DNA of 64,000 nt from a virus (Duplodnaviria; Caudoviricetes). The stretch's first letter is position 1. Every line of letters begins with the position of its first letter. The DNA lies in IMG/VR virus record IMGVR_UViG_3300025011_000016; one strand, given 5' to 3'. This document shows, piece after piece, positions 11,139-58,063 of this stretch. The notes beneath the pieces are model-generated. The model saw only the letters and a program-made list of their open reading frames with translations. It was not told where the DNA came from and ran no database searches. A program made the translations under genes and the position numbers.

Positions 11139-12628
11139 ATGGCTAAATTATCAGAGGCAAATAAGTTATATTTATTAAGTCTAAACCCAGATGATATTAC
11201 TTTTGATCTTTTATTAGAATTATTTGCCCATACAACTAAAAAAGATAAAGATAATAAAGTATCTGTAGTTAAAGGTAGAATGAATATAACTGATGAATTT
11301 GAATTAAAACCTAATGAATACTTTAATAAAGTTAAAGTAAGAACTACTGCAGGTCAGTTCATATATAACAAATTAATTATTGAAACTGAATTAAGTGAAG
11401 TATTAGGATATATAAGTGACCCTTTAAATAGTAAACGATTAAAAGAATTGGAAGATGTTTTATCTAAAGCTTTATTAACAGATAAAATAACTGTTGAAAC
11501 TATGGTTAACTATCTAAATAAAGTACAATGGCTGGCACTTCAGTTTCATTCAGTTATAAGTGGTTCATTTACTATGAATACTTTAAAACCAAACAAAGTT
11601 GTAACTGCAAGACGAAATAAATTGTTAAAAGATAACGCCGAGAAAATAAAAAATGGTGATGTTATTACAGCAGTTAATATTGAAAAAGAATTATTGAAAG
11701 TTGCACAAGAAGAATTGAAAAATGATCACGGTATGGATCTTTATAAATCTGGTGCCAGAGGATCATTTGGTAATAACTTTAAGAATATATCTGTTATAAA
11801 AGGTCCAGTATTCAATCCATCGAAAGGTGTATTTGATATAGTCACTTCTAACCTAATGGAAGGTATACAGAAGAACGAGCTTACATCAGCAGGTAATAGT
11901 ATTATCAGTGGTGCTTACCCTAAAATATATTGGGGCAATATAGCGTAAGGTATATTGAAAACTATTTAAATTGACGGGAAACTCCTTAGGACTTTATATA
12001 ATAAAGATTGGACAATCCGCAGCCAAGATTCTATAATAGAATAAGGTTCAACGACTAGAGTGAGAACTCGTAAATATTAATAGTATTGAAAATGATGGGA
12101 TCTTCGTATTGGAGATTATGATATAGTCTTGTATCCTAATTAATAATAGGGAAGTTCATAAGAGAACTGTATAGATTAATAATCTATATGAAAATAACGA
12201 AAGCCATAGGAACTGCTGTGTCAGGCTATTTTGCTAAACAAATGGTTGCCTCTTTACAAGCAGTAGTATTAGATTCTATTGGTTCAGATTGTAAATCAAA
12301 AGGAACCTTAAAAGTATTTCTTACTAAAAGTCTAGCGAATGATTTCCTATATAGATATATTGTAGAAGGAAGTAAATTGATTCTATTAGACGATAATAAT
12401 ATATCAAAATATATTGATAAATTTATACAGGTGAGATCTCCTATGTATTGTATATCATCCAAGTTATGCAGGGCCTGTGCGGGACAGATGTACAACAAGC
12501 TTAAGATTGATAATATAGGATTAACAGCCGCTAAAGTTTCAACCACTTTAACCAATTTATCAATGAAAAAATTTCATAATTCATCACAAAGTATAGTTTC
12601 CCTAAAAGTGGATGAATTATGTATCTAA
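11139..12628 (+). CDS. rpoC: RNA polymerase beta'-like subunit (middle/C-terminal part); exons 11139-11921 and 12200-12628, about 403 aa
   Basis: SGARGS motif; spliced EGIQ...GAYP|KAIGTAVSGY aligns without gaps to bacterial EGLN...TALKTANSGY; C-terminal C...C..CAG Zn site. Confidence 0.85.
11922..12199 (+). ncRNA. group I intron (ORF-less, 278 nt)
   Basis: P1 CCCU/GGGG; P AAUUGACGGGAA, Q AAUCCGCAGC, R GUUCAACGACUA, S GAUAUAGUC; ends ...AUAACG. Confidence 0.9.
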
Positions 12629-12830
12629 ACACCATCTTGATTTAAATTATATATTATTAAAGTAATAATAAGAAAGGGGTTGATTAAGATGTAAATATAT
12701 TATTAGCCTATTAAAATAAGAGATGATAAGTTTTAAACTTATCATCTCTTTATATTATTTGTTAAAAATGAGAATTTAATATGTAATGGACAATAACATA
12801 AGGTCTACGAATAAAAGGAGGATAATTTAT

Positions 12831-15800
12831 ATGAGCCAACCCACAGGAGTGAAATTAGTTAAATTAGATTGGAATAAGGAGTGTGAAAAAGATTTTATAA
12901 CTGGTAAAGGTTTTGAAATTACTGAAGTTGCTTTTAAGAAAAAGGATGAGAAAACCTTTAAAGGGAAACCTGATGATTCAAATGGTAAGAAAGAAAAATC
13001 ATATAATGGTATGCACTCAAGTAGATACGCTTCGGATTAATTATTAGTCCCTTCATGTAGTAATACATGTTGTAAACTCTCTTAATTGCGGGGATCTCCT
13101 TAGAGCTTAAACTACTTATATAGTAATAACGTTTAAGATTGTATGATCCGCATCCAAAATTCTATTAAATAGATATGGTTCAACGACTAGAGAAATCTCG
13201 TAAATATAATTGTTATATTGAAATAGAGAGCAACCTAATTAATTAGGTTGATGATATAGTCTTGTATCCTAATTAACATTAGGGAAGTTCATTTGAGAAC
13301 TGTATAGAGTTACAATCTATATGAAAGTATCGTGGGGGGATGAAGATGCATTTGCAGAAAGATATTCCTGTAAATGTAAAGATTTAAAAGGTAGAGTTTA
13401 CGAAGATGAAATATGTAAAATGTGTGGTACTAAAGTAGTTTTTAAAGATGTTGATATGAAAATCACAGGATGGATAAAACTACAACATCATGAAATTATT
13501 CATCCGATATTCTATAAGATGATTAAATCTATTATAGGTGATAAAGTATTTAATGAGATAATTGAATATGATAAGGACATAACTAGAGAAGGAATTGCTT
13601 TAAGTAAAGAGGGTAAGAATCCATTTAAAGGTATTGGTTTGATTGAATTCAGAGAACGTTTCGATGAAATCTTGTTTTATTATAAAGATAAGAAAAAGAA
13701 TAAGATTGACTTAGTTAATGAAGTATTAGCTGAAAGAGAAAAAGTATTTACATTTTGTTTACCAGTTTATTCTTCTGTTTTAAGACCAGTATCATTTAAA
13801 GGTGAAAGTTATTACTATAACTTTATTGATAGAAAGTATAATGCCATATTTTCATTATCACGATTATTAAATACTAAAGGTCCAATGCCTAATGTTAATG
13901 GCATGAAAGTTAAAACAAGTAAGATGGATGAACCAACTATATTACAATCAATGCAAAAGAAAGTTATTGATCTATGGCAATTAATCTTCTCTGAAATTAA
14001 TCAGAAGTCGGGCCACATAAAGGATGGAGTTTGTCCCATCGTAGAGTGATTTACGTTGAAAACTATTTTTAATTGCGGGAATATTCTTAGAACTTCTTTA
14101 TGGAAGATTGGGCAATCCGCATCCAAGTCTCTTTTATATAAGAGAAAGGTTCAACGACTATCCTTTAGTGTTGAAATACACAATAGGAGTAGGGCCTAAG
14201 TAGGTGGGTGAGATTCCCTTAAATCGAAATAAAATGCATCTCGTTGGAGATGATGATATAGTCTGAACTTCTATTGAAAGATAGAGAGAGGTGAAATTCC
14301 TTTGCATTATTTTACAAATAATGTCTACGACTGCAAATTCTCGGTGGTAGGATCAACTTTAGTTCAAGAAATGTAATTATACCGGACCCACAACTAAAAT
14401 CCGATGAAATAAGATTAGGGTATCTTGCTTTTCTAGAGCTATTTAAATATGAAATAATTGCTCATGTCGTTAAGATGAATGATATTTCTGAAAATGAAGC
14501 ATATGAGCAATGGTTTAAAGCAAGTATCAACTATAACAAGAAGATTTATGAAGTGATGATGTACCTAGTTAAGAAAAGAAAACCACGAGTGATCATAAAC
14601 CGAAACCCTAAATAATGTGGGGCGTTATAGAGTGATCTATAAGAGTAAACTATTTTAATTGACGGGAAACTCCTTAGGGCTTCGTAAATGAAGATTGGAC
14701 AATCCGCAGCCAAGTCTCTTATATAAGAGAAAGGTTCAACGACTATCCTTTAGTGTTGAAATACACAATAGGAGTAGGGCCTAAGTAGGTGGGTGAGATT
14801 CCCTTAAATCGAAATGAAAGCATCTTTATAAGATGAAGATATAGTCTTATATCCTAATGAAAGTTAGGGAAGTTCATAAGAGAACTGAGCTACGTTACGT
14901 GTATCTCGAACTCGGGACAATTAATTACGGATCTGAACTCTTAATGAAGATAGTTGATATTAAAAATGAATATAAAGATGATTATACTATGAGTTTACCT
15001 ATTCAAATATTACGAGTACTAAACGCGGATTTGTAACAAAGTCCGGTTATAATAGTAATATTATAACGAGTTCCATGTGAACGCCTAACAAGCGGTGTGA
15101 GAGATATATTATGCTCTTGCTAACGGTAGAAGCGAAATATGCAGAATAAGCTTCGTAAGAGAATCTACGGTCCTGAAATATGGATAGCGTGACAATACCG
15201 TGCCAAGTTCCTATTAATTGTAAGTTCGCAAACAATCTACAAACAGTTAGGATGGTGAAATATCTTGCGTATACTGATTAAACCATATGGGGTAGTTTAT
15301 ATAATGAGAAATTTAATAGATACTAAGGTATATATCGGACAGACTGTAAATCTTGAGAGGCGAAAAAATGAACATAAAAACCGTAAATCCTCATCCAGTA
15401 AGAGATATAATTTTCATATTACTAAAGTTATAGAAGAATATGGATATGAAAATTTTGAATTTAAAGTTTTAGATGAAGCGTTTTCTAAAAAAGACTTAGA
15501 CGATAAAGAGAAATATTTTATATCCTTATTTAAATCCAATGATCCTAAATATGGATATAATTCAAGAGGAGGTAATTTACAAGAACCATTAAATCAGAGA
15601 ACTAAAGATTTAATGTCTAGTTCTCATATAGGCTTGACTGAAACTGCCATAACTAAAAGAAAAAAGTCTCATAAAATTTTAGCATTTAAAGATAATGTAT
15701 GTCTAATTGTGGATAGTGGTAAATTATTTGGTGATATGATTGGAAAAGATAGAAATAATGTAACAAATGCTTTACGAAAGGGAATAAAAATAAAAGGTTA

Positions 15801-16515
15801 CTATGTATTTTATCTAAGTAGTAAAAAACGTGAAGAAGTAATTAAGAAATCTGATGATTGGGCTTATTGCGAACTAAGCCGATTAATAGGAAACGGTGTA
15901 GAGGCCATCGAGCAATCGTATGTTATAGATTATATAACATATGATTGAGTAGAGTACTGGTCGGTTTGCGGGCCGATTGGGAAGCGCATGGCTCCAATAC
16001 TATAGATATATAATATTGGATGAAGATATGGTCCACCCCTATATGAAAATATAGGATGTGGTGTTCGACGGCCAATGTATATGACCGGTGATTCTTTAAT
16101 TGACGGGAATATCCTTAAAGCTTAGACTACTAATGTAATAATGTTTAAGATTGGACAATCCGCAGCCAAGTCTCTTATATAAGAGAAAGGTTCAACGACT
16201 AGAGTGAGAACTCGTAGATACTTTATGTATTGAAATGGGAAACCGATAGATTAAATCTATCGAAGATATAGTCTATTATCCTAATGAGTATTAGGGAAGT
16301 TCATAAGAGAACTGTATAGATTTATAATCTATATGAATATAAAGGATATATTGAATATTATTTCACTGAAGACTAAGAAACTAATTAAAGCTTATGATAA
16401 GACATTTAATCCGAGAAAGAATATGTTCATTTCTAGAAATGATGGATTATTTAATGATGATTTCAATCTACTAAAAGATCAACTTATTGGTCTATATGAG
16501 TTTAACAATATTTAA
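12831..16515 (+). CDS. rpoC: RNA polymerase beta'-like catalytic subunit (N-terminal part); 6 exons 12831-13037, 13333-14025, 14334-14609, 14917-15030, 16064-16072, 16345-16515, about 489 aa
   Basis: Spliced product restores the Zn-binding CKC..C..C, GHIKD|QILGGRINF, NRNP|TIN and NAD|FDG|DILN (NADFDGD); AGGAGG before ATG 12831. Confidence 0.9.
13038..13332 (+). ncRNA. group I intron (ORF-less, 295 nt)
   Basis: P1 GGAU/GUCC; P/Q/R/S elements; 3' G at 13332; joins ASD|WGD in frame. Confidence 0.9.
14026..14333 (+). ncRNA. group I intron (ORF-less, 308 nt)
   Basis: P1 GGAU/GUCC; P/Q/R/S; joins HIKD|QILGGR. Confidence 0.88.
14610..14916 (+). ncRNA. group I intron (ORF-less, 307 nt)
   Basis: P1 CCCU/GGGG; P/Q/R/S; joins NRNP|TINY. 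Confidence 0.9.
15031..16063 (+). mobile_element. group I intron (1033 nt, divergent core) carrying a GIY-YIG homing endonuclease
   Basis: P1 CGGAU/GUCCG; P4 ACGGU/ACCGU; S GAAGAUAUGGUC; ends ...GUGGUG just before TTC GAC GGC. Confidence 0.85.
15265..15948 (+). CDS. intron-encoded GIY-YIG homing endonuclease
   Basis: VVYIMRN....VYIGQT, conserved R and E, GYN motif; lies between the Q and R elements of the intron. Confidence 0.88.
   Translation: MRILIKPYGVVYIMRNLIDTKVYIGQTVNLERRKNEHKNRKSSSSKRYNFHITKVIEEYGYENFEFKVLDEAFSKKDLDDKEKYFISLFKSNDPKYGYNSRGGNLQEPLNQRTKDLMSSSHIGLTETAITKRKKSHKILAFKDNVCLIVDSGKLFGDMIGKDRNNVTNALRKGIKIKGYYVFYLSSKKREEVIKKSDDWAYCELSRLIGNGVEAIEQSYVIDYITYD
16073..16344 (+). ncRNA. 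group I intron (ORF-less, 272 nt) with an apparent C at the 5' splice site
   Basis: P/Q/R/S elements; removal joins FDG|DILN; P1 CGGC/ACCG. Confidence 0.82.
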
Positions 16516-16532
16516 AAAGAGGGGTGGGTAGT

Positions 16533-16604
16533 ATGAAACGTTTATTTAGTATTGTCTATTGGTCACTATTAGTGGGATTAATATACTATATATTCTTTAA
16601 ATAA
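16533..16604 (+). CDS. 23-aa hydrophobic peptide
   Basis: MKRLFSIVYWSLLVGLIYYIFFK with GAGGGG upstream; read manually. Confidence 0.45.
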   Translation: MKRLFSIVYWSLLVGLIYYIFFK

Positions 16605-16621
16605 AATGGAGGTATGAATAT

Positions 16622-16930
16622 ATGGCAAAGAAAACTATCGATCATGTATTTAATTTATTTGGAACAAGTTTAGGATATTATGATTTAATTGCTGTAAAGT
16701 TAGTAGAATCTGATAACTATTATGTTATTAATTGTAATTTCACAAATATGTTTATTAATAACAAATTATTAAGTCCAGGTACGATTATATCATCATTTAT
16801 ATTCAGTCAGTTGATCCTCAAATGCAATAGGCCGTTGGTATTAAATGATGATACTGTTGATATGGATAAAGTGAAAGAATATTGTAGACTACTCGGTTTT
16901 TATGGAATATCTAAGATCACAGTGGTATAA
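16622..16930 (+). CDS. hypothetical protein
   Basis: ORF with GGAGG. Confidence 0.65.
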   Translation: MAKKTIDHVFNLFGTSLGYYDLIAVKLVESDNYYVINCNFTNMFINNKLLSPGTIISSFIFSQLILKCNRPLVLNDDTVDMDKVKEYCRLLGFYGISKITVV

Positions 16931-16987
16931 ACTATATGAGGGAGTTAAAAAACTTCCTCATATTCTTAAATTTAAAGGAGGAAAATT

Positions 16988-17356
16988 ATGTTATTTTTGA
17001 TTTATTCAATAATAGGTATATTGATATGTGTTGCTGTTGGCTCAATACACATTTATTTAAAACGACCACTCGCTATTGTGGAAAATGATTTTATATATGT
17101 GAATGATATGTATTTAAAGGTTCATGAAATTTCAATATTCAAAGGTTATTCTCTTGATACCGCTACACTCCGATGTTCACGTAATATTGAGAAACGACAT
17201 CTTAACACATTTAAGAGGATTAATGTTGGTACAACATTAAAAGTATTAGAAAAGAACCTCACAGTACGATCACATATGACTATTGCTCATATTAGAATAA
17301 CAGATAGATCGCCAATAATCGTTGATATTGAGTTAGATAATGATTTCTTTGGGTGA
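16988..17356 (+). CDS. hypothetical membrane-anchored protein
   Basis: AGGAGG; N-terminal hydrophobic helix. Confidence 0.65.
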   Translation: MLFLIYSIIGILICVAVGSIHIYLKRPLAIVENDFIYVNDMYLKVHEISIFKGYSLDTATLRCSRNIEKRHLNTFKRINVGTTLKVLEKNLTVRSHMTIAHIRITDRSPIIVDIELDNDFFG

Positions 17357-17377
17357 TAAATATTTGAAGGGAGGGAA

Positions 17378-17560
17378 TTGATGGACAATAAGTTAAACTA
17401 TTGTATTCATGGAATATTTATTAATTGTAAATTAGAAGTTTGTCTATCTCAAACATGTATCCGGAAAGTGAAAGAATATCCCAATAATTCAAATCTCATA
17501 ATGTCTGATATTACCAAAGTTAACTCATCTAAAGTTAAAAAGGAAATATTAAAAGTATGA
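17378..17560 (+). CDS. small Cys-rich hypothetical protein
   Basis: GGGAGG upstream; 60 aa. Confidence 0.5.
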   Translation: MMDNKLNYCIHGIFINCKLEVCLSQTCIRKVKEYPNNSNLIMSDITKVNSSKVKKEILKV

Positions 17561-33629: not shown

Positions 33630-36600
33630 TTGGTTAATAAGAAATTTAAACTATCTATAAATGAGCAACCAAAAAAAATTGCCATCAAATTTGACATTTC
33701 GATTTTGAATTCTATGATCGGGTTTTTATTTAAACAATCAGTGCAAATTAATAGGAAAGCTCTTAATAATATGAAAAAATTATTTGATATTATTGATACA
33801 ACGATATATGAAGGTAATGATAAACTTGAAGCACGACTTAATTTTATAAAAACAGCTTTGGACGCTCGCATAACTAAACAATTCGAAAATGAAAGTATGA
33901 TTATAAATTTCTGTCGCGGTGATACTTATAATAAAGATACTGAAGAAATTATATCAGCAATCGGGGCCTATCGCAGAATAAACTACGAGGAGATAAAATT
34001 TATAAACAAAGCAATCCAAGATAGATTGAAATACTCTTATCTATTAGATATTAAAGATAGAATGTATAATGTTGTAGAGAAAATAGATTCTGGGGATTTT
34101 GAAAGCTTTCAGGATGTTAATGATGAATTAGTTGGACTATGTTCTCACCTATTGAATAAAACCAGAAAAACAAGTGTTCTTGATGATGTGACAACTTTTA
34201 GTTTAGATTCAGAATCATTTGAAACATCGATTACAGATATAGTCAATGCTCTCAGAGATCCATCAAAAAAATATAGGTGGCATTGTAGAGTAATTTACAA
34301 TGATAAACTTCTTTAATTGCGGGAAATCTCTTAGAGCTTCTTAATTGAAGATTGAGTAATCTGCATCCAATATTGTTAATACAACAATAAGGTTCAACGA
34401 CTAGAGTGTAAACTCGTAGATATATGAAATATATCGAAATGGGAAGCATCCTTGATGAAAAAGGTTGATGATATAGTCTTGTATCTTAATGTAAATTAAG
34501 GAAGTTCATAAGAGAACTGTATAGGAGTACATACCTATATGAAAAAACGCACGTATTTTGAAAACAGGCTTGAAAATGCTGAACCAGATACTGGCCCCTG
34601 GCTTTATATCTAAACGATTGTATATGTTTTTAGGCTTACCAGCTTATAAATAAGGTTGGCTCATTGGTAACAATGTGATATAAACTTCTTTAATTGCGGG
34701 GAACTTCTCATAGCTTTATACTAATAAAGATTGGACAATCCGCATCCAATATTCTTATAATAAGAATAAGGTTCAACGACTAGAGTGTAAACTCGTAGAT
34801 ATCGATAATATTGAAATGGGAAGCTCTCTTATTATATAAGAGATGAAGAGATAGTCTGGTATCCTATATTAATATAGGGAAGTTCATTTGAGAACTGTAT
34901 AGATTAATTATCTATATGAACATATCGGGTTTTAAATCAGGTATATTATTGAAAACTGCTAGAGATATAAAAAAGTATAATAAAGGAATTAAACCTAAAA
35001 AAGCAGGTAAAAAACCATGTGTATTATTACTAACACTTGAAAACTCAATTAGTGAATCCGTAGAGAGATTATTTAACATGGTTAGTACTTCTGAGGATAT
35101 TAGGAATTTTACTCCTAAGCAAGTTATTAAGAAATTAAAAGAAGATGGTGAATTAGTATTAACTGATGATGACGATATTGATATTATTATTAAATATTAT
35201 CCAAATAGAAGTATTGATACCTCTGATATATATACTATAGTTGAAGAATTAGCTGATGATGACAAAGAGGTAATAGCTTTAATTTTAGACTATATTAAAA
35301 GAATACGACCTGCTGAAAAAGCTAGTGACGAAAAAGAAGAATTAAAGAATATTACCAATGAATTGAAGAATCTAGCTACAGAATTAGATATACCAGTTAT
35401 TTCAGCCCATCAATATAGGGTGGCTTTATAGAGTGATTTATAAAGAGAACTTTTTTAATTGCAGGAAACTCCTTAGGACTTTATATAATAAAGATTGGAC
35501 AATCTGCATCCAATATTGTTAATACGACAATAAGGTTCAACGACTAGAGTGTGAACTCGTAGATATATAAGTTAATGATATATCGAAATTGAAAGCATCT
35601 AATAAGATGGTGATATAGTCTTGTATCCTATAGAAATATAGGGAAGTTCTTAAGAACTGCATTATATTACGAATAATGTGAAAATCGCAAATGAATAGAG
35701 CTGGAGCAAGTTCAGTTGATGCCGCATTACAAGCTAATAAAGAAGACTTGGCTAAATTTGTAGGTAGAGCCAATGTTGGAAGTGCCTATATTTCATGGGC
35801 CGCATGATGGTAATGTCATGTTGATACTTTTTTAATTGCAGGAAACTCCTTAGGACTTTATATAATAAAGATTGGACAATCTGCATCCAAGATTCTTACA
35901 TAAGAATAAGGTTCAACGACTAGAGTGTGAACTCGTAGATACTTTATGTATCGAAATGGAAAGCAACCTAATTTATAGGTTGAAGAGATAGTCTGGAATC
36001 CTAATGAGAATTAGGGATGTTTGAATAGAACTGGATTATATTACAAGTAATCTGAACATTACGGGGAAGTTTGTATAGAAGCTTCAACATACAGTAATGT
36101 ATGTTTTAAATTTTCTTTAATTGTCGGGGATCTCCTTATAGCTTAAACTACTTTCAATATAGTAATAATGTTTAAGATTGGACAATCCGCATCCAAGTCT
36201 CCCAAAAGAGAAAGGTTCAACGACTAGAGTGTAAACTCGTAGATACATTACGTATCGAAATAAGAAACCCCTTTATATAAAAAATATAGAGGGTGAAGAT
36301 ATAGTCTTGTATCCTAATTAATAATAGGGAAGTTCATAAGAGAACTGTATAAGTTTATGACTTATATGAAAATAACGACTTGAAAACTCAGATTGGGTAT
36401 GTATCATAAACGTCGAGCGTAAGAAAGGAACCGATCAATATTACTTAACCTTTAAAAGAGTTAAGATTCGTTATAGAGATCCAAATGATTTAGGTTATTT
36501 CAATCATCCATTTGATATTCAAAATAGAATGAAGCTTATTGACGACATATATTTAGAAAAATCATTATCTGAAGAAAGTCTAATGAGTGATTTTGAAGGT

Positions 36601-41792: not shown

Positions 41793-44615
41793 ATGAAAAT
41801 TGTACCTAATAAACAACAAAAGAAAGCTGTTATTGAATCAGTGAAATGGTTAAAGAGTGGTTATAAACAAGTCTTTGAAATATCAGGTCCTCCAGGATCA
41901 GGTAAAACCTTTATAGTTTATTTAATACGAAAGGCAATGAAGCTAAATCCCTTGGATGTTCTATTTATGGCATATGTAGGAAAAGCTACAATGGCTTTGA
42001 CATTACAAGGTAATAATGCAAAGACAATGCATAGTTCTATTTATGATAGGGTTGATTTACCTAAGATGGATGAGAATGGTAAGTTTATTTTAAAAAATGG
42101 TAGAATACTTACAACTCCTGGTTTTGTTAAGAAAAAATCTTTACCTGATAATATAAAACTTATAGTGGTGGACGAAGGTTCTATGATTAATGAAAAATAC
42201 GCTTTAGATATTTTAAGCTTCAAGTTACCAGTTTTAGTGCTCGGGGACTTAAATCAGCTTTTTCCTATCTTTGGGAAACCTTATTTCTTAAGACAACCTG
42301 ATATTATATTAACAGAAATTATGAGACAGGCTAAAGATGATCCTATTATTCATTTAAGTCAAAAGGCAATTAATGGTGAAATTATTGAGATAGGAAAATA
42401 TGGTGATAGATGTTTTGTTATTAATAAAGAAGATATCACAGACAATATGCTTACAAAAACAGATATCGTTATTTGTGGTAAAAATAAGACACGGGATCAT
42501 ATAAATAAATATGTTAGAGAAGAAATATATAAAATAGACAAGCCTTATCCAGTAAAAGGTGAGAAATTAATATGTAGACAAAATAATTGGGATATGTCTG
42601 TCGATGAAGGTAAAATATTCTTAGTTAATGGTCTTGTAGGTTACGTTGAAGAAACACATTTAGACACTTATAATAAAAGATCTTTATGTATTGATTTTAG
42701 GCCTGAGTTTTTAAAAGAAACTTGTTTTGAAAGAGTAGCAATTGATTCTTTTATGAGTCACGTTGCATAGTAATATGCAATTGCAACTACTTTAATTGCG
42801 GGAAACTCCTTAGAACTTTATCTACTAATGTAACATGATAAAGATTGGACAATCTGCAGCCAATGATCTATTCATAATAGATTTAGGTCCAACGACTAGA
42901 ATGGGAAAGTTCGTAGGGCTCAAGTGAGTGGGTGAGACTCCCTTAAATCGAAATGGGTGGCCCCATTATAATAATTAGTATAATGGGTGAAGATATAGTC
43001 TGTGCTTTAAGGAAACTTAGAGAATAACTAACCGTAAGTCTTAATAACTATTCTGTATATAATTATATTATACAGTTAACAAATAATATAAGAACGGGGG
43101 TGATATAAAATGATTAAGACTTTTAAAACAAGAATACGACCGAATAAAGAACAAGAGGTATATTTAAATAAGTGCTTTGGGTATAGAAGGTTTATATATA
43201 ATAATGCGTTAGAATACTTTAATACTCTTTTAAAATATAATAATAATGTTATTGATAAGGATTTAAAGAAGTTCTTTGATAAATTTGATTATATTACTCA
43301 TATATATTCTAAGAAAGAAAAGGGACCGGGATTTGAATGGACTAAAGAATATAATAAGTCCATAAAGAATGAAGTGGCTAGTGATGTTAACTTAGCTGTT
43401 AATAGATTTTTTAAAGATATTAAAAATAAGAAGCGTTGTAAACTGCATTTTAAAAGAAAGGTTCATGGAAATGGATCGTTTAGAATATATAGTAAGCATA
43501 AAACTAATGTTATGATTCTTGATATGAAATTATTCTCTTTTATTATTAATAGAGAATTTGGTCATATGTCATTAAAAACATATGAGGACATAAGTTTCTT
43601 ATATCATCATGATATAAAAACAATGACTATTAGTATGAAGAATTTTAAATATTATGTCTCATTTACTTATGAAATAGATGTTCCAAAGCATAAGCATGAG
43701 AAAGATACCATAGGTATAGATTTAGGGATACATAATCCGGTAGTTTGTTTTGATGGAAAAGATATCATAAATCCTAAATTTCCGAAAGGAATTATTAAGA
43801 AACTAGAGAAGAGAGCCGATAAATTTTCAACGATAGTTTCTAAGAAGAAATATGATAAATGTAATCCATCAAAGAACTATATAAAAGCGAGAACCAAGCT
43901 TAATTATATTCATGGTAAGATAGTGAATATTAGAATGGATTATATTCAGAAGGTTTCAACCTTCTTAACTAAGACTTATAGAAATATCGTAGTTGATGAA
44001 TTTAGTTTTAAAGAATTACTAACAGAGTCTGATGGTATTAAACGTATTAATAGAGGTATACATAGAGTAGGTGCCTTTACGTTTATGCAAGTGTTAAAAT
44101 ATAAATGTCACTTTTACGGCAGTGAATATATTTTAGCCGAACCTAATAGTACCATTACATGCTCTGAATGTAATCATAAACTTAAAACTAAGTTGAAGTT
44201 ATCCCAAAGAGTCTTTAATTGTCCTGATTGTGGATATATAGATGATAGGGATAATAATGCGGCTATTAATATTTATAAGTCATATAAGAATCTTTATTAA
44301 CTAACGTAAATAGAGATTTCGCCGTTGGTCGGACGGTTTAAAGAACCTTGACGGTTAAGTTATTGTGGTATCTAACGAATACTACTAACACGACAGTATA
44401 AGCATTTATTTACACCATATGAACAGAGAGATAATAAACGTAGCTATTATAATAAATTTGAATTTGCCAACGCAATAAGCGTTCATTTATCACAAGGATC
44501 ACAATATAATACAGTTTTAATATATAATGAAAGAATGGGAGATAAAGAGTATTATAAGAAATGGTTATATACAGCAATATCGAGAGCGGTATCCGGATTA
44601 GTATTGGCCGTTTAA
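41793..44615 (+). CDS. RecD/Dda-like SF1B helicase; exons 41793-42746 and 44397-44615, about 390 aa
   Basis: GPPGSGKT, VVDEGSMI, LGDLNQL, LTEIMRQ; exon 2 supplies FANAISVHLSQGSQY and LYTAISRA. Confidence 0.9.
43110..44300 (+). CDS. tnpB: TnpB RNA-guided endonuclease (IS605 OrfB family)
   Basis: N-terminal KTFKTRIRPNKEQ HTH; RuvC GIDLG, VVDEF, DRDNNAAINI; CSEC...CPDC Zn finger. Confidence 0.93.
   Translation: MIKTFKTRIRPNKEQEVYLNKCFGYRRFIYNNALEYFNTLLKYNNNVIDKDLKKFFDKFDYITHIYSKKEKGPGFEWTKEYNKSIKNEVASDVNLAVNRFFKDIKNKKRCKLHFKRKVHGNGSFRIYSKHKTNVMILDMKLFSFIINREFGHMSLKTYEDISFLYHHDIKTMTISMKNFKYYVSFTYEIDVPKHKHEKDTIGIDLGIHNPVVCFDGKDIINPKFPKGIIKKLEKRADKFSTIVSKKKYDKCNPSKNYIKARTKLNYIHGKIVNIRMDYIQKVSTFLTKTYRNIVVDEFSFKELLTESDGIKRINRGIHRVGAFTFMQVLKYKCHFYGSEYILAEPNSTITCSECNHKLKTKLKLSQRVFNCPDCGYIDDRDNNAAINIYKSYKNLY
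44300..44396 (+). ncRNA. putative omegaRNA scaffold / IS605 right end (5' limit uncertain, may extend into tnpB)
   Basis: Nearly identical block at 56285-56381; hairpins GCCGUU/GACGGU and GUGGUAU/AUACUAC. Confidence 0.65.
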
Positions 44616-45898: not shown

Positions 45899-48800
45899 AT
45901 GGCTAAATTTACAGATGATCAAATAGAACACATAGAAAGTGACATAGAGAAGATTCAGACTAAGCCTAAATATAATTGGGCTATTATATAGTGATATATA
46001 ATATAAACTTTTTTAATTGACGGAAACTTCCTTAGAGTCTAAACTACTAAATTGATATTTTAGTATATTGATGGCTGAGTGTAATTAACTCAGGTATAGT
46101 AATAATGTTTAGGATTGGATAATCCGCATCCAAGTCTCTTATAATAAGAGAAAGGTTCAACGACTAAATGTAGAGCTCAAGTGAGTGGGTGGAAATCCCT
46201 TAAATCGAAATGGAAAGCATCTTTAATAAAAGATGATGATATAGTCTTATATCCTAATGAAAATTAGGGAAGTTCATAATAGAACTGCACAGCTCAGCAA
46301 ACTGTGTGAAATAATGAATATGTACGTCAGCTATTTAGCACACCTAGGCGCATTACATTTATCTAAAGAGGTAATAAATAATTCTATAGATGAATGTATT
46401 AATCAAAATTCACCAGCTAACGAAATTAATATATATTTAGATGAAGGTGAGAATACTTTACTAGTTGCTGATAATGGTAGAGGAATAGCTTTCGATAAAA
46501 TGGAAATTGTGTGCACTAAATTACAAGCAGGTAGTAAGTTTACCAGAGAGGGTAGTGGTGGAGCTTCTGCTGGAGAAAACGGGTGTGGCATTACGGCCGT
46601 GAATTCGCTGTCGGAACACTTTGAGATAATCTCAACTCGTTATGGTGAAAGGGCTATAATTGAATTTGAATCTGGTAAGTTGGTCAGGTCACCAGTAATT
46701 AAAAAAATCGGTGATAAAACTAAACACGGTACTACAGTAAAATTTAAACCCAATCCATTTTACATGGGTGACGATTGTGATATCCCAACAGATTTATTGA
46801 TTGAATGGATTGAAAAAATAGTTTATTTAATGCCATCAAATATAGAAATATCACTAAGTGTCTCCAGAAAAGGTAAAGAATCTGCAATAAATAAAAAGTA
46901 TCGTAATAAAAATGGTTTAAAGGACTATATTTTGAAATTGTGTAAAAAGCCTATTTTAGATCCAATTCATTTTATGAAATCTTTAAAAATTAAAGAATTT
47001 GATAAAGGTAGAGAGATCGAAAGATTCATTGGATTAGAAACAGCTTTTACTTACAATTCAAATAGTATGGAACCTATTATTGAATCATTTTGTAATTTTG
47101 TGGTCACTGTTGAAGGGGGTATTCACAACGATGCTGTTAAACAAGGTGTTGTCCAATTCTTAGTTAGGAAAACTAAGGAGGGTTTATCTGATAAAGAATC
47201 GAAAAATATTGATATACTACCTATAGACGCTACTCAAGGATTAGTGTTGACATTATACTTAAGTACCGATATGAATATGATGTTTGCATCACAAACGAAA
47301 GAAAAACTTTCTAATAATGCTTTCTTCAAACCACTCAGAAACATGACATTTAATTCATTGGATGAATACTTTAAAAAAGAAGTTAATGATTTAAAGAAGA
47401 TAACAAGTTTTATTAAGACTAATGCTAAAGCAAGAATTGAATCAAACAAAGCTAGAAATGCTGTTATTAAAGGTGAAACTACTTCATTCGAAGAACACAA
47501 AATGAAGAATTTCTCTCCTGCAAATAATTTAGGGAATGATTACAGAGAGTTATTTGTTATAGAAGGTAAATTAGATTGCCTTATTTTCTTTAATTGACGG
47601 GAAACTCCTTAGAACTTCTTAATTGAAGATTGGACAATCCGCAGCCAAGTCTCTTTATATAAGAGAAAGGTTCAACGACTAGAGTATGTAAGCTCGTAGG
47701 TTTATTTATAATCCGAAATGGGAAAACAATAGATTTATTCTATTGAAGAGATAGTCTAATATCCTAATTAACATTAGGGAAGTTCATAAGAGAACTGTAT
47801 AGAGTTATAATCTATATGAATGATTGGATTCAGCAAAGGGTAGTGCAAGGTTAGGTAGGGATACGGATACTCAGGCATTATTTGCAATGCGAGGAGTTCC
47901 ACTTAATAGTTTTAATCTAAAGTTAGATAAAGTTTTATTGAATGATGAATTTAGGGATTTAACTAAAGTATTAAAATGTAATATCGGTGAACGATTTGAT
48001 ATTACAAAACTAAATTATAAAAAAATAATCATACTTACGGATGCGGATTAATTCATAGTCCCATTATGTAGTGATATATAATGTAAACTTCTTTAATTGA
48101 CGGGAAACTCCTTAGAACTTCTTAATTGAAGATTGGACAATCCGCAGCCAAGTCTCTTTATATAAGAGAAAGGTCCAACGACTAATAGTAGGGCTCAAGT
48201 GAGTGGGGTAATAACACCCTTTAAATCGAAAATAGAGGCATCTTTTATAAGATGATGATATAGTCTACACTTTATTGAAAGATAAAGAAAGATAGCATCT
48301 TTACATTATCTAACGAATAATGTTAATATGAATGGATTGATGGTTTGAGAATAGCCTCACTAATTTGTGTATTCTTCTTATGTCATATGCCAGAGATAAT
48401 TAAGCAAGGATATTTATATAAATCAGTATCACCACTATATTTATTAAATGATACTAAGGGTCATTTTATTATTGATAAAAAAGAGTATGTATCAGTTTTT
48501 GAAAAAGCTGTTAGAAATAACATTAAAGTTATTGATCCAGAAACTAATATTGTTTATACTAATAATGAGATGAAAGAGTTACTATTAAAGAATAGGGGAT
48601 ATTTAGAGGAGTTATACCGAGTTAGTAATCATTTTGCAGTTAATCCTTTTATCATTGAATACATCACCATATATGGGGATCAATCAAATTTCATAAATAA
48701 AATGAAAAAGAAATTCCCTGAGTTAACACTTGATGAAGAAAATGTTTTATCTGGTATATATGAAGGAAAATATCAGATTATTATATTGGATAAAATATTC

Positions 48801-52303: not shown

Positions 52304-52369
52304 TAAAAAATATACATCTGTTCACATATATAGGTAGTATATTAAGAGAAAGAGTGGGGTTTTAATAGA

Positions 52370-52933
52370 ATGGGAGAATTCATATTCTTAAGTAACTATG
52401 TAAAAGATTCTGAACGTATTACCGATATAACAGGATATCTATTAAGTCAAAAGATACAATATTATATTGGTGAGCCTTTAGAAGTTTCTGAAGGTTTGGA
52501 ATCAGAACTTGTTGGAATATATATTATTTTACCTACTACTTATGAAACTATTAATGATATATTCGATCGTAGGGAATTCATAAAGAATATACCCATTCAT
52601 CGAAGATTCATTATGACATATGAGGAAGAATTTAGACCAAAGATAGATAAGTTTTTATCTATATTATCAAATAAGAAATCGATACAATCTTTCAATTATA
52701 CTAAGAGTAAAGGAATACTTATGCTAATTACTGAAGTTGATGATAAAGTGGGATGTATTCCTGCTGATGTATTACTTAAATTAAATAAGAGTTTTGATAC
52801 CTTGACATATAGTTTAGACATGGACAGAGTAACACAGATATGCAATATATTTGGTTGTGATGTCGACGAGTTAACACATATACTTAGTGATGGTTTATGG
52901 ACTAAATTTGGAATTGATATATACAATCTATAA
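52370..52933 (+). CDS. hypothetical protein
   Basis: ORF track. Confidence 0.6.
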   Translation: MGEFIFLSNYVKDSERITDITGYLLSQKIQYYIGEPLEVSEGLESELVGIYIILPTTYETINDIFDRREFIKNIPIHRRFIMTYEEEFRPKIDKFLSILSNKKSIQSFNYTKSKGILMLITEVDDKVGCIPADVLLKLNKSFDTLTYSLDMDRVTQICNIFGCDVDELTHILSDGLWTKFGIDIYNL

Positions 52934-52939
52934 ATGATT

Positions 52940-52985
52940 AAAATAAAAGATATACGATTTAAATCGTATATCTTTTATTTTTTTT
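52940..52985. terminator. bidirectional terminator
   Basis: AAATAAAAGATATACGATTTAAATCGTATATCTTTTATTT. Confidence 0.75.
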
Positions 52986-54252
52986 AAGCCTCATGATTAG
53001 ATACTAACTCGAATAACTCTCTAAAATCTACCATATTATGAAATACCTTTATTGTCATGTAATTAAGCATCCACGAGAAAATCCGCCTACTATTGTCATT
53101 CTTATTGAAATCGAGATAATATTCATTAATAAATTTTTCAGAACTCTCTATATCATCTTCAAGAGTTTTTCTTAATCTGGGATTTAAATCAGGATCTTTT
53201 AAATCCCTCTTTAGTTTATCTAATTGAGAATTTATTCTAACGGCGTCCTGTGGATGAGGATCGGCGATAGCCGTTAACATTCCCAAGGTTACATTAAGCA
53301 GATCATAACCCCAGTTTAATAGGGGAATTTTGTATATAATTTGATCGGAAATAAGGTTTTCTCGTTTATGTAGTTTATTTTGGAAGCTCATCATGGCTGG
53401 ACCATATCCATATGTGGAAGCAAAACTATCTGAGTATTTTTCTCCAGCATAACCAAATATATTTCTTGAATTTAAAGCACCCAACACTATAAGTTCGGGA
53501 CCTTTAATTACATTAATAAAACTCTTAACTTTAAAATACGCCATAATATTTAAATAACCTTCCCAAAAAGTTGTAGCTGCTCTAAGTAATCCAGGAAATT
53601 TATTTATCAATAATGACTCGACTAATTTTATCGTATTTGTATATTTACCCCCTAAATTAAACACATCATATATTCCTAAAACCATAAGTGTGTTTATAAT
53701 ATATACAGGACCATTTTTTATAAATTCTGGGACTAACATAATATCTAGTGGTAATTTAGACAGGAGTGTGAACATTGATATATCCATATTATGACCTATT
53801 TCATGAAGTATGACTGCCATAATTTCTTCTGCTGTTAAATCAGCGTATAATACTAACAGTATATCTATATTCACACCCACGTGCATAGTAGATACATCTG
53901 TAGATCCCGTATTATCTCGATGAAAGAAATTAAAAGCTCTTGGTATAGTAAATGCATTAAACGGGGTTGTTAATAATACAGGCTTCATAGGATAATAGAA
54001 ACATAAATAGAATTCACCAAATCCAAATTTCTGTTTAAATAACTTCTCTATAAGAATAACACTATCATTCTTATTCAGATCAGTTATTTTTATTGGGGTA
54101 TTAATTTTTTCTTTTAAATCGGAAAATTTGGGATTATCTTTTCGTATTATTTGTATTATTTTATCCAGTTCTTTTTCTATAATAAGAAATTCTTTAGGTT
54201 TACCATAATATGCTTCGGTAACAGGTTTCATAAATGATGTTAATATGCCCAC
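52984..54252 (-). CDS. zinc metallopeptidase-like protein
   Basis: ILHEIGH zincin motif plus EKYSDSFA; AACA-N6-TA upstream. Confidence 0.7.
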   Translation of the reverse strand: MGILTSFMKPVTEAYYGKPKEFLIIEKELDKIIQIIRKDNPKFSDLKEKINTPIKITDLNKNDSVILIEKLFKQKFGFGEFYLCFYYPMKPVLLTTPFNAFTIPRAFNFFHRDNTGSTDVSTMHVGVNIDILLVLYADLTAEEIMAVILHEIGHNMDISMFTLLSKLPLDIMLVPEFIKNGPVYIINTLMVLGIYDVFNLGGKYTNTIKLVESLLINKFPGLLRAATTFWEGYLNIMAYFKVKSFINVIKGPELIVLGALNSRNIFGYAGEKYSDSFASTYGYGPAMMSFQNKLHKRENLISDQIIYKIPLLNWGYDLLNVTLGMLTAIADPHPQDAVRINSQLDKLKRDLKDPDLNPRLRKTLEDDIESSEKFINEYYLDFNKNDNSRRIFSWMLNYMTIKVFHNMVDFRELFELVSNHEA

Positions 54253-54342
54253 GATAAATCACTTCCTTCTATATATTCGATATTAAACTATTGTTTAAAA
54301 CAATCATTTAAATAGATAATGTTGATAGGTAGGTGTATTTAT

Positions 54343-55506
54343 ATGGCTAAAGATGACAGTGTTTTATTAGATGAGTTATATCCTTTAGTTGAAAAGGGTT
54401 TATCTAAAAAGGAAAATAGTATGAAGATAAAGAAAGCTGTTGGTGAGTTCTTAGATAGAAATTCTGAGAAATTAACTACTATTGGCCCGATCCATCAAAT
54501 GATGTTTACAGATGAAGATATGAAAAAACTATACGATGCTATCGAAGTTCCACCTGAGCAGATAAAAGAGATAATTAAGAAATCTCCATATATACAAACT
54601 CAGTGGAAGATTATGAATAATCCATTTAATTCAGCTTGTGTATTAGCACTCAGATTTTATAAATTACATAAGAATGATGAAATGGTTAATTCAGTCTTAA
54701 TATATCTAACTATGTCTATGTATCCATCATTATTTCATAAATACTTTCAGTTTGAACCCAATGAAAACATAATGAATTATACTATTAATAGCTTATCTAA
54801 TAAATTTAAAATTAAACAAACTGGTACTATATATGGGGCATTAATAGATACTGTTAGAGTGAATGATACAAAATATGGAGATGAGGTATTACATGGGACT
54901 GATAAAGAATTAGTAGATTATATTAACTCTATTAAAACTCGTTTGAATAGTTTATTAAAACATATCTCTATTGAGTTTTATAAGAATCATGAAAATAAAA
55001 ATTATATGAATTCAGACTCTGATAATTTAGAAGAAGAAAACTATCATGAAGCTGACAGTAATTTATATGCAATTGAAAGGATAACTAATAATGTAGTTCT
55101 TAAATTAACAGTAGAAGGGCCTAATATTAAATTGATCAATATGGCTGCTGAATTATCACAAGTTAGTAGAAATGAATTAAGGAATTATGTAAATTCAATG
55201 GTCTTAAATAATAATAGAGATGATATCAAAATTATAGTAGAGAGTATATTATTCTTATTTTTATTTGATTCACAAAATCAAATTCAAGAATTAAGTAGTA
55301 ATAAATTTCTATTGTATTGTAGAGAGATGTATCGAAAGTCTAATACAAATGATGAAAACATAATAAAGATAAAGAAGATATTAGACTCATGGTTAACTGA
55401 CTTAGGAACATATAAAAAGACCCAAAGATTAGCTACTATTAACTCATTTAGAAAAGCTTTATTTATGTTTTTTGTTATAAGTATCCAGAATGCAAATGTA
55501 GTTTAA
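54343..55506 (+). CDS. hypothetical protein
   Basis: Long helical ORF; AGGTG; AACA-N6-TA upstream. Confidence 0.65.
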   Translation: MAKDDSVLLDELYPLVEKGLSKKENSMKIKKAVGEFLDRNSEKLTTIGPIHQMMFTDEDMKKLYDAIEVPPEQIKEIIKKSPYIQTQWKIMNNPFNSACVLALRFYKLHKNDEMVNSVLIYLTMSMYPSLFHKYFQFEPNENIMNYTINSLSNKFKIKQTGTIYGALIDTVRVNDTKYGDEVLHGTDKELVDYINSIKTRLNSLLKHISIEFYKNHENKNYMNSDSDNLEEENYHEADSNLYAIERITNNVVLKLTVEGPNIKLINMAAELSQVSRNELRNYVNSMVLNNNRDDIKIIVESILFLFLFDSQNQIQELSSNKFLLYCREMYRKSNTNDENIIKIKKILDSWLTDLGTYKKTQRLATINSFRKALFMFFVISIQNANVV

Positions 55507-55790
55507 AGATGATACGAATATGATTTAAATCATATTCGTATCATCTTTATCTTCCTCTATATAGACATCTTCACATTTTAAACCTCTAATTAACATACTC
55601 TCAAATATATCATCGGGAATTTCATTTACCAAGTATTTATTATATGAGTTGAGTTTACAACCGGCTTCTACATCTTTGACACCTATGAATTAGTTCATTC
55701 ATTAACATATCAGCTCCTTTATTTATATGTAAACACTTTTTTATAGTATAATGAAAACATTTTATTAATTGAGACATTATAAAGGAGGAT

Positions 55791-56381
55791 TCATATTGAG
55801 TCTCGTTGCATAGTAATATGTAATTGTAACTACTTTAATTGCGGGAAACTCCTTAGTGCTTAAAACACTTTTAAAGTAACAAAGTTTAAGATTGGACAAT
55901 CCGCAGCCAAAGTTATTATTTAATAACGAGGCTCAACGACTATCCCAATGGTACTAAAATGTACATTAGGAGTAGGGCTCAAGTGAGTGGGTGAGATTCC
56001 CTTAAATCGAAAAGGGTAGCCCCATTATTATAATGGGTGAAGATATAGTCTGTGCTTTAAGGAGACTTAGAGATATAACTTAACCGTAAGTAAGTCTTAA
56101 TAATTCATTCTTAATAAGATATTATTATAGTTATAACAAATAATATAAGAAGGGGGTGACGATAAATGTTTAAAACTTTTAAATACATCTGACTAAAAAA
56201 GCTATGTATTGACACGAAACTTATAAATAATGGCGATAACCAAGCCTATTAATAATATTTATAAGTTGTAAAAATCTTTATTAACTAGCGTAAATAGAGA
56301 TTTCGCCGTTGGTCGGACGGTTTAAAGAACCTTGACGGTTAAGTTATAAGTGGTATCTAACTAATACTACTAACACGACAG
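55791..56381 (+). mobile_element. non-autonomous IStron-like group I intron (591 nt, tnpB deleted) between the SD and start codon
   Basis: 5' end, core and 3' end are homologous to 42747-44396; residual tnpB ends (ATGTTTAAAACTTTTAAA ... AATATTTATAAG...AATCTTTATTAA). Confidence 0.88.
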
Positions 56382-56385
56382 GAAT

Positions 56386-58063
56386 ATGTCTATTACTAAA
56401 CAGGCTAGAAAACAAATGGAATTATTAATTTATTCAGTATTTACAGCTTTAGATCCAACTGGTTCTAATACTGCTAAATATAAAGAATTATTTGGTAAAA
56501 TGAATGATACTCAATTTGATAAATTCTTCAAAGATTTCTTTAAAGAGGAAGATGAGTATCTTATATTAGACGTTATTGATTATGAGTTAAATCTTCAAAT
56601 GGAAGATGTAGAAAGAGCTGCAAAGATTCTTGATGTACCTTTATTCGAAAAAGTTGCAATGCCATTTATTAACAACAATACAGAAAATCCTGTTGTTACT
56701 CAATATGAAGTTCCGGTTGGTTACATTAACTTGAAACGGGTTCAACAAATATTAGCTAAAAAAAATACTACATCTACAGAAATATCAACACGTTCTGCTA
56801 TAACAGGACAAGTTGTTGGTAAGGATAAAAATGCCAGAGATTCAGATCAGGAGAATTTTGCTCTTGTCACTTTAAATGCTACGAACACATTACGTGAGCT
56901 TTTGGGTTATGTTGCTTAGCCCCTATATACGGTAACGTATATAGCAAACTTCTTTAATTGCAGGAAATTCCTTAGAGCTTATTATATGAAGATTGGATAA
57001 TCTGCATCATATTTTCTAATGATTAAAATATTTTCTTACTAATAAATATACAATATTTTAAAGGATGTGAATTATAAAAATGTATATAGTCATTCGTAAA
57101 GATAGAGAAATATTTAAACTTGTAACATATCCTAAAGTCAAACCTGATACTTATGAAGTTAGTAATTATGGTAATATTAGAAATTTAAAAACTGGCAAAT
57201 TAGTAAAATTATTTCCCGATACAAAAGGTTATCCTTTTGCAAATCTTATGTATAAAAAATCCATTGCTCGTAGTGTTAATATCCATAGGTTGGTAGCGTG
57301 GGAATTTGTAGATGGATATGATATAGATCGAGGGAGAACTAATGTTAATCATCTGGACAGCGATCCTACTAATAATTATTATGAAAACCTTGAATGGGTT
57401 ACAACTAAAGAAAATAATCAACATGGTATTAAACATGGTAAGATTAGATTTGGTGCAGGTGGTAGTCTAAATTATAAAGCTAGATATAATGAAGAATTTT
57501 GTTCGTAAACTATGTCCATACATTGAAAAAGGACTCACTCAAATGGAAATAATGCATATTTACGGTTATAAAACAAGAAAAGAAAATAAAAGTTTATATT
57601 CTTTAATAGATGGAATTTACTGGGGTGTGTGGAGAGAGGTATCAAAAGAATTTAATATTAATATAAAACAAGAAAAATGTTCAACGACTATCCTTTAGAT
57701 GTGAAATTCATCATTAGGAGTAGGGCCTAAGTAGGTGGGTGAGACTCCCTTAAATCGAAATAAGAAGCATCTTATATAAGATGATGATATAGTCTTGTAT
57801 CCTATATAACTATAGGGAAGTTCATAAGAGAACTGCATAGATTAACGAACTATGTGAAAGTATCGCCCAGGAGTGATGACCTTGTGATGAAAAATCAAAT
57901 GTATGCTAGTATAGCTCAAAAAGGATATGTATCACTAGATGAACTACCGAACGATGTTGCCAATAAAACAACGCTGAATACAATTGATGTGCATCTTATT
58001 GGCTTAGGTATTAAAAGCGATTTAATCACTCAAGGATTATTAGTTAGAAAGACTATGAAATAA
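56386..58063 (+). CDS. rpoB: RNA polymerase beta-like C-terminal subunit; exons 56386-56907 and 57866-58063, about 239 aa
   Basis: VPVGYINLKRVQQ, TGQVVG, TLRELLG|PRSDD match the bacterial beta C-terminus (VGYMY.LKL, TLQEMLTVKSDD). Confidence 0.82.
56908..57865 (+). mobile_element. group I intron (958 nt) carrying an HNH homing endonuclease gene
   Basis: P1 GGGU/GCCC; P/Q before and R/S after the ORF; 3' G at 57865. Confidence 0.9.
57080..57698 (+). pseudogene. NUMOD4-HNH homing endonuclease, frameshifted near 57497-57500
   Basis: YEVSNYGNIR, IHRLVA..F, VNHLD....NN...NLEW; the C-terminal part continues in another frame after a TTTT run. Confidence 0.75.

Follow-up and report, generated by a model that had tools for sequence, protein, structure and literature searches.

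The locus studied here raises the question of how group I introns come to occupy new sites, and of why those without an open reading frame (ORF) persist. It lies in a stretch of 64,000 nt (hereafter the window) on the minus strand of the IMG/VR virus contig IMGVR_UViG_3300025011_000016 (100,486 bp, 29.7% G+C; here G000), which derives from an uncultured giant (jumbo) phage of groundwater; the DNA runs containing the contig all trace to one groundwater study. An initial annotation of the window had proposed 17 group I introns within 46 kb, 13 of them short and ORF-less, in six essential genes. The genes encode three phage RNA polymerase (RNAP) subunits (beta'-C, beta'-N and beta-C-like), a DnaB-like helicase, a RecD-like helicase and GyrB, and the insertions fall in their most conserved catalytic motifs. 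Our analysis supports, with a probability we put at about 0.85, the reading that these are 17 genuine group I introns left behind by homing and endonuclease loss, together with an expansion of one compact subtype (type A, below) specific to this lineage.

When the elements were scored against the Rfam model RF00028 (gathering score 50 bits), 14 exceeded the gathering score in a default covariance-model run and the recD-like element reached 80.8 bits in an E-value run with laxer filters, so that 15 of the 17 passed, at 56.9-100.7 bits. The other two, both interrupted by an ORF, matched in parts: the GIY-YIG intron of beta'-N gave a partial match of 32.5 bits, and the HNH intron of the beta-C-like gene matched in halves (RF00028, 23 bits; nhmmer, E 1e-16 and 2e-32). 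The covariance model thus scores the elements as group I introns, in agreement with the initial annotation. The R box (GTTCAACGACTA) occurred 16 times at no more than one mismatch, every time on the plus (coding) strand; at no more than two mismatches there were 18 matches against 3.7 expected, a count reached in 0/100 shuffles, and the P, Q and S boxes were found at the expected spacing. An RNAalifold consensus of nine mini-introns recovered P3, P4, P5, P6, P8, P9, P9.1 and P9.2, with double (both-side) compensatory changes in 22 of its 56 pairs; P7 was left undrawn by RNAalifold as it is pseudoknotted with P3, and inspection by eye shows the R and S boxes to be complementary. The guide sequence differs from intron to intron and in each case pairs with the adjoining 5' exon (partly read by eye); the last base is G in all 17, and P1 places a U.G pair at the 5' splice site of 16. 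In the remaining case, a synonymous GGC-to-GGT change before the intron at 16073 would give the canonical U.G. The identity of the 17 elements as real group I introns is thereby confirmed, and excision by self-splicing in the phage is predicted: P1 would pair the 5' exon with the intron's guide, the terminal G would set the 3' end, and each intron would have to undergo guanosine-initiated self-splicing before a functional protein could be made.

The phage has no close cultured relative, since a megablast search of 20 kb against INPHARED yielded nothing beyond a 52-nt match to HNH genes of Vibrio phages. Among annotated phages, the closest are AR9/PBS1, jumbo phages of Staphylococcus and Listeria, and phiR1-37 (27-48% amino-acid identity). 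The RNAP subunits were identified by tblastn to the annotated AR9 and phiR1-37 subunits and by the NADFDGD motif, as Pfam gave only sub-threshold Rpb1 matches. Three IMG/VR jumbo phages, G001 (75 kb), G002 (187 kb) and G003 (250 kb), served as relatives, with G004 added for the survey of type A; two relatives were retrieved through a gyrB exon search and the remainder through a scan for a family-specific P9.1 motif, and a related-locus search with a beta'-N exon returned none. G001-G003 are syntenic with the window, and their proteins show 54-85% amino-acid identity with undamaged frames. The beta'-C, dnaB, gyrB and recD-like genes are all uninterrupted in G003, as are gyrB, the recD-like gene and the first 430 residues of beta'-N in G002. 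A homologue of the beta-C-like gene was not detectable in G002, and this junction was compared with G003 and G001, both intron-bearing there, and with AR9, where the homologue is a virion RNAP subunit annotated as three joined pieces.

Boundaries were set by requiring U at position -1, G as the last intron base and the join best matching the orthologue. This placed one intron in beta'-C, five each in beta'-N and dnaB, one in the recD-like gene, three in gyrB and two in the beta-C-like gene (one of them in its leader), a total of 8,016 nt or 17% of the 46-kb span, with 13 ORF-less mini-introns of 259-349 nt; the per-gene counts, sizes and total of about 8.0 kb given earlier were all reproduced. 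After removal of the 17 introns, six complete coding sequences remained, each with a length divisible by three and one terminal stop. Fourteen junctions were gap-free and colinear with uninterrupted G003 or G002 orthologues at about 60% amino-acid identity (examples are NAD-FDG-DILN and AID-YKHLF, hyphens marking the joins, and those labelled colinear in Table 1). Together with the terminal G and P1 pairs described above, these junctions bear out the earlier statement that a P1 helix, a final G and a restored motif accompany the introns, with 16 of 17 U.G pairs. At 13 of the 16 coding junctions the intron falls between two codons (phase 0); our binomial arithmetic gives this a chance of about 1e-4, and the excess is likely due to the required U being easiest to accommodate at third codon positions in an AT-rich genome. 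The other three, all in dnaB, split codons (phases 1, 1 and 2).

Two exons, of 9 and 7 nt, lie between tandem introns in beta'-N and dnaB respectively, and the dnaB frame closes only when the 7-nt exon is included. Such exons are untranslatable alone and could be expressed via splicing only, and the three split codons rule out independent translation of the pieces. Inteins are likewise excluded by the micro-exons, the split codons and the gap-free junctions. By eye, the GAAG at bases 3-6 of the 7-nt exon could pair with UUUC of the upstream guide region (P10) and also with GCUUC of the downstream intron (P1). This dual pairing, if real, would impose an order of splicing.

Table 1. Coordinates of introns, micro-exons and putative IStrons in the window (hyphens within motifs mark junctions; bits are RF00028 scores).
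Feature	Coordinates	Strand	Length (nt)	Type	Bits	Remarks
RNAP beta'-C intron	11922..12199	+	278	A	63.9	No ORF; P1 CCCU/GGGG with U.G; GAYP-KAIGT colinear with uninterrupted G003
beta'-N intron 1	13038..13332	+	295	A	58.1	Absent from G001, G002 and G003
beta'-N intron 2	14026..14333	+	308	B	69	P7.1/P7.2-like hairpins; junction HIKD-QILGG; absent from G002 and G003
beta'-N intron 3	14610..14916	+	307	B	100.7	Splits NRNP-TINYG; site occupied without ORF in G003, with NUMOD4-HNH ORF in G001, empty in G002
beta'-N intron 4	15031..16063	+	1,033	Different core		GIY-YIG ORF 15265-15948; splits NAD-FDGD; P1 CGGAU/GUCCG; site empty in G003
Micro-exon TTCGACGGC	16064..16072	+	9			Phe-Asp-Gly of NADFDGD; G003 has continuous NADFDGDVLN
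beta'-N intron 5	16073..16344	+	272	A	58.8	C at -1; second intron at this position in none of the relatives
dnaB intron 1	34264..34549	+	286	A	65.6	RDP-SRILKTG colinear with G003
dnaB intron 2	34645..34927	+	283	A	73	Splits GLPA-GFKSG, colinear
dnaB intron 3	35411..35687	+	277	A	69.9	Splits SAH-QMNR, colinear; G001 introns lie near this site
dnaB intron 4	35788..36063	+	276	A	89.3	Codon phase 1
Micro-exon GGGAAGT	36064..36070	+	7			GSA-WE-VLENSDW, colinear, against continuous GTAWEIMENSDW in G003
dnaB intron 5	36071..36377	+	307	A	56.9	Codon phase 2; P1 GAAGU/GCUUC
recD-like IStron (putative)	42747..44396	+	1,650			Group I core, tnpB ORF 43110-44300 and conserved right end
gyrB intron 1	45968..46316	+	349	B-like	74.7	QTKP-NMYV colinear with uninterrupted gyrB of G001, G002 and G003
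gyrB intron 2	47568..47826	+	259	A	65.5	Splits Toprim EG-DSA, colinear
gyrB intron 3	48049..48335	+	287	B-like	95.4	Splits DAD-IDG, colinear
Mini-IStron (putative), beta-C-like leader	55791..56381	+	591		86.3	No ORF; P1 GGAU-UCA/UGAGUCU
beta-C-like intron	56908..57865	+	958	B		NUMOD4-HNH ORF 57080-57508, C-terminal part in ORF 57489-57698; ORF-less intron at this site in G003

Sixteen of the 17 introns belong to one IA-type family, while the seventeenth, the GIY-YIG intron, has a different core. The initial annotation had arrived at a group of 16 from shared P, Q, R and S boxes; the group itself stands, on the basis of an nhmmer profile and a common P9-P9.2 region, but the boxes were rejected as its definition because phage IA-type introns in general have them as their core, and the R-box 16-mer alone matches in more than 110 unrelated viral contigs. 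A profile of the 13 mini-introns found 23 elements in the contig (E 1e-17 to 1e-66) and 8-19 in each relative. The P9.1 element GGGAAGTTCATWWGAGAACTG, which marks the family, was present in about 80 stretches from many viral contigs of 100-290 kb. Nine members (type A: the beta'-C intron, beta'-N introns 1 and 5, all five dnaB introns and gyrB intron 2) have GAG after the R box and lack P7.1/P7.2 hairpins, and seven (type B) carry one or two extra P7.1/P7.2-like hairpins between the R box and P3'. Of the features expected of subgroup IA2, an extended P9 was found in all 16, and P7.1/P7.2-like hairpins in the seven type B introns and not in the nine of type A. Monophyly of type A is not claimed, as its support of 0.94 on the full alignment was lost once the P7-P8 region was excluded. 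The copies are old, with identities of 57-84% and a mean of 70% within the contig (70-75% across two comparisons). Beyond the end of the window, at the equivalent of 66695-69056 on the minus strand of G000, six more family introns lie in about 2.4 kb, which brings the contig to about 24 introns in its 100 kb.

Homing endonuclease genes were found inside only 2 of the 17 introns. The GIY-YIG ORF of beta'-N intron 4 is intact (domain E 1e-12), and G002 has an orthologue of it, 48% identical in amino acids, at the corresponding position. The ORF in the beta-C-like intron contains HNH_3 and NUMOD4 domains and is the sole HNH homing endonuclease gene in the contig; it is frameshifted near residue 140, its C-terminal third lying in another frame relative to the orthologue (203 aa) that G001 has at this site. 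The gene is probably decaying, and the frameshift could stem from decay or from an assembly error. The third ORF, in the recD-like element, encodes TnpB, with OrfB_IS605 and Cas12f1-like TNB domains and no classical homing endonuclease: it aligns full-length to ISDra2 TnpB (E 5e-26), and a comparison with the designed homologue that ranked first, equal to it in length, showed the DLGI and DRDxNAAxNI motifs and a CxxC...CxxC zinc finger. Of the three nucleases counted by the initial annotation, the GIY-YIG is thus intact, the HNH is frameshifted and the third is a TnpB. For its roughly 24 introns the contig as a whole has a single gene each for HNH_3 and GIY-YIG and two for TnpB; neither further HNH or GIY-YIG genes nor a reverse transcriptase were found in it, and the only match to a Y1 transposase (TnpA) in its 100 kb was sub-threshold, at 18.6 bits.

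From the identity of its TnpB, the recD-like intron is taken as a putative group A-like IStron. Its 5' exon ends in TTGAT, the element ends in ACACGACAG, and none of G001, G002 and G003 has an insertion at this site. The 591-nt leader element shares 78% identity with it over the first ~390 nt and 93% over the last 132 nt, with the tnpB part deleted, and is accordingly read as a putative TnpB-less deletion derivative. A third copy, TnpB-bearing and cut by the contig end, lies at window-equivalent 72924-74443 and is 84% identical to the recD-like one. Group A IStrons, such as CdISt1 of Clostridioides difficile (PMC4227781, Tourasse et al. 2014; PMC10690162, Zedaveinyte et al.), insert after TTGAT, ATTAT or TTTAT and end in TCAG (PMC4227781), and TnpB-only and ORF-less derivatives of IStrons are known; the IStrons reported from phages are of group B, in phages of C. 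botulinum, with none of group A (PMC4227781). The recD-like and leader elements share with group A a 5' ribozyme of putative IA2 type, the 3' IS605-type tnpB (deleted in the leader copy) and, for the recD-like copy, the TTGAT flank. They differ in their location in a jumbo phage, in the lack of a tnpA found in the contig, in the ACAG that ends all three copies in place of TCAG, and in left flanks that vary from TTGAT (recD-like) to AGGAT (leader) and TAGAT (third copy). The 13 mini-introns of the window are not IStrons. In the beta-C-like virion RNAP gene, the leader copy comes after the Shine-Dalgarno GGAGG and before the ATG at 56386. A spliced leader would read GGAGG-ATGAAT-ATG, with a 6-nt spacer, and in unspliced RNA only AGGA is found near the ATG; translation of this subunit may be splicing-dependent.

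Comparison with the relatives showed that the insertions vary between genomes. For 11 or more of the 17 sites, at least one of G001-G003 has no intron. The gyrB and recD-like genes are intron-free in all three, and dnaB is intron-free in G003. G002 has two introns in dnaB, one at about residue 285 where the site is empty here, and G001 has two adjacent family introns in dnaB at about residues 406-415, a few dozen bases apart, at sites that are empty in the window. In beta'-N there is one intron in each of G003 and G002 and three in G001. In the relatives, the same loop of many family members contains a NUMOD4-HNH ORF of 190-280 aa, and the sites so occupied include beta'-N 393, where the copies of the window and of G003 are ORF-less, and beta-C 174, where the window copy is frameshifted and that of G003 is ORF-less. 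These HNH-bearing versions, some of them at the same sites, indicate that endonuclease loss explains part of the ORF-less load, and with such a pattern of homing followed by decay no special route of spread is needed for type B. The initial annotation had taken spread by another route, or in trans, to be implied by three nucleases serving 17 introns; in view of the relatives' HNH ORFs this does not follow for the whole set, and such spread is a possibility for the compact subtype. Introns group by genome over insertion site, but weakly (70-75% against 69-72% identity), and the clustering of type A was sensitive to P7-P8 as described.

Taken together, we favour a history in which endonuclease-driven homing would have invaded this jumbo-phage clade repeatedly, the endonuclease genes would then have been lost and the ribozymes would have stayed. 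We propose that they were retained because imprecise deletion from an active-site codon would be lethal. In addition, the compact ORF-less subtype would have expanded in this lineage.

Several results weigh against this reading. Homing followed by loss may not extend to type A, which makes up 9 of the 17 introns: type A is present in 12-14 copies in the 100-kb contig and in none in ~600 kb of relatives (G001-G004), and the contig contains no ORF-bearing type A copy. When genomes are compared, introns at a shared site have 64-74% identity and all pairs taken together average 69%, and as same-site introns are no more alike than others the fit with simple vertical inheritance is poor. The intron at 16073-16344 has C at -1, giving a C.A pair at the splice site in a 6-bp P1. 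CheckV estimates the contig to be 42% complete, so that some 58% of the genome is unseen. Finally, no RNA runs were listed as containing the dnaB or gyrB stretches, and three tiny SOLiD metatranscriptome runs of the same study contained next to no words of them.

Endonuclease-independent spread of type A is possible, and we give real, if minority, weight to the wider proposal that the ORF-less load, or at least type A, arose mainly by transposition within the lineage, either by reverse splicing at partial guide matches of 4-6 nt followed by complementary DNA (cDNA) synthesis and recombination or by ectopic DNA recombination, the guide adapting afterwards. The presence of type A in this contig and not in G001-G004, its uniform lack of ORFs, the few nuclease genes present for so many introns and the clustering of G000 introns with one another and not with same-site introns of relatives all agree with it. 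Moreover, the type A core and the P9.1 element of the family did not occur together in any of ~190 other IMG/VR loci fetched, and the 5' exons of type A introns end alike (CCCT, CCAT twice, GCCT, GGAT, AGCT, AAGT and AGGT). Yet no reverse transcriptase was found in the contig, the copies are too diverged for recent movement to be visible, the clustering by genome is weak, the conserved catalytic motifs at the insertion sites are typical of endonuclease targets, and a master copy with an ORF, or endonucleases encoded outside introns, could lie in the unseen part of the genome. A bolder form of the idea, which we think unlikely, is that a compact endonuclease-free subtype arose here, kept P9, shed P7.1/P7.2 and multiplied to at least 12 active-site codons by an endonuclease-free route such as reverse splicing. 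If true, it would amount to a ribozyme burst resembling that of miniature inverted-repeat transposable elements (MITEs), each copy with a retuned guide sequence, with some copies 7-9 nt from a neighbouring intron and a micro-exon whose part in both the upstream P10 and the downstream P1 forces the order of splicing.

The remaining alternatives fare worse. That the mini-introns are non-autonomous IStron derivatives, moved in trans by an IS200/IS605 TnpA or kept by TnpB cleavage of empty sites, would fit with the three IStron-type copies having the same ribozyme core family, with the leader copy as proof that TnpB-less derivatives arise and with the recD-like copy following TTGAT, a group A target (PMC4227781). 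We consider it very improbable, however, as no Y1 transposase stood above threshold in the contig, the right end of an IStron (ACACGACAG and a conserved tail of ~130 nt) is missing from the 13 mini-introns, whose ends vary, and their left flanks (CCCT, CCAT, AGCT, GGAT, AGGT) hold no common target motif, even the three IStron copies differing in theirs. Split RNAP subunits, encoded by separate genes, are natural in jumbo phages, and it could be argued that the pieces here are likewise translated as split subunits without splicing, or that the genome is decaying and non-viable; several introns end in ATG just before the next exon, which gene callers take as starts, and splicing is here a prediction from sequence. 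Such a view is hardly tenable given the micro-exons and split codons, the compensatory changes in intervening sequences that score as ribozymes, and exons that are under clear purifying selection with intact frames. The density might also be an assembly artefact, a repeat collapsed or chimerically inserted, since an element repeated more than 20 times in a single metagenomic contig invites that suspicion. We regard this chance as close to nil: the copies are only 57-84% identical and each guide matches its own exon, all insertions are exactly in frame, independent Logan assemblies of three separate samples contain 62-94% of the words of the dnaB stretch (93-94% in two of them), and the same architecture is present in the relatives and in AR9. 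We thus retain homing with endonuclease loss, together with the expansion of type A, as the preferred reading.

For practical purposes, gene callers break the six essential genes into about 30 fragments, and metagenome surveys of jumbo-phage RNAP, helicase and gyrase genes will miscount them unless intron-aware models are used. Expression of the transcription and replication machinery of this phage would depend on 17 ribozyme reactions, two of them flanking micro-exons in catalytic motifs. The ORF-less paralogues with their different guides, set beside the empty and endonuclease-bearing sites of relatives, form a natural data set for the question posed at the outset. Outside the intron-bearing genes, an ORF at 59595-60740 of the window has a tubulin/FtsZ-type GGTGSG signature and may encode a PhuZ/TubZ-like phage tubulin.

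The introns resemble the homing introns of SPO1/SP82, Twort, T4 and PhiPA3 (HNH of the I-HmuI type, GIY-YIG of the I-TevI type) in having NUMOD4-HNH or GIY-YIG ORFs in a ribozyme loop, in occupying active-site codons of replication and transcription genes and in having intron-plus and intron-minus alleles among relatives; they differ in that just 2 of 17 keep an endonuclease gene, one of these frameshifted, and in that cleavage and homing are, for them, predictions. Crowding of this kind is already documented in related giant phages (AR9) and in the Jug and crAss-like phages. The Jug gut phages contain on average 18.5 group I introns of ~206 nt per genome of 360-402 kb, and metatranscriptome reads confirm the splicing of 37 of 76 (PMC12880540). 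Like the phage described here, the Jug and crAss-like phages (PMC12880540; PMC7886860) are huge and uncultured, with essential genes fragmented by many small introns, few endonucleases among them and broken gene calls; unlike it, they belong to another phage clade with a Bacteroides host, and no IStrons have been reported from them. The Jug genome mean is about 0.05 introns per kb, against 0.24 over our contig and 0.37 over the 46-kb span.

Bacillus phage AR9 (KU878088; Takahashivirus), the nearest cultured relative at 30-48% amino-acid identity, offers the closest parallel, judged from its annotation and an Rfam scan. It too is a jumbo phage with split multisubunit RNAPs, its essential genes are crowded by many short, mostly ORF-less group I introns, and HNH and other homing endonucleases are present in a minority of them, as here. 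Its terL is annotated in five joined pieces and its virion RNAP beta-N in six, with four RF00028 matches within 1.35 kb of terL (95395-96740) and six or seven within 3 kb of beta-N (150108-153011). Unlike AR9, the phage of the window also has introns in dnaB, gyrB and the recD-like gene, putative TnpB IStrons and a compact subtype without P7.1/P7.2. The AR9 genome gave 18 RF00028 matches in 251 kb, G003 14 in 250 kb and G002 8 in 187 kb, compared with 22 in the 100 kb of our contig, or about 24 introns in all; neighbouring matches in AR9 terL are some 70-130 nt apart, against exons of 7 and 9 nt here. The density that had been called extreme is therefore extreme in degree and not in kind, multi-intron genes with ORF-less introns being annotated in AR9, and this genome is the densest example found, by about 3-5 fold, with the shortest micro-exons.

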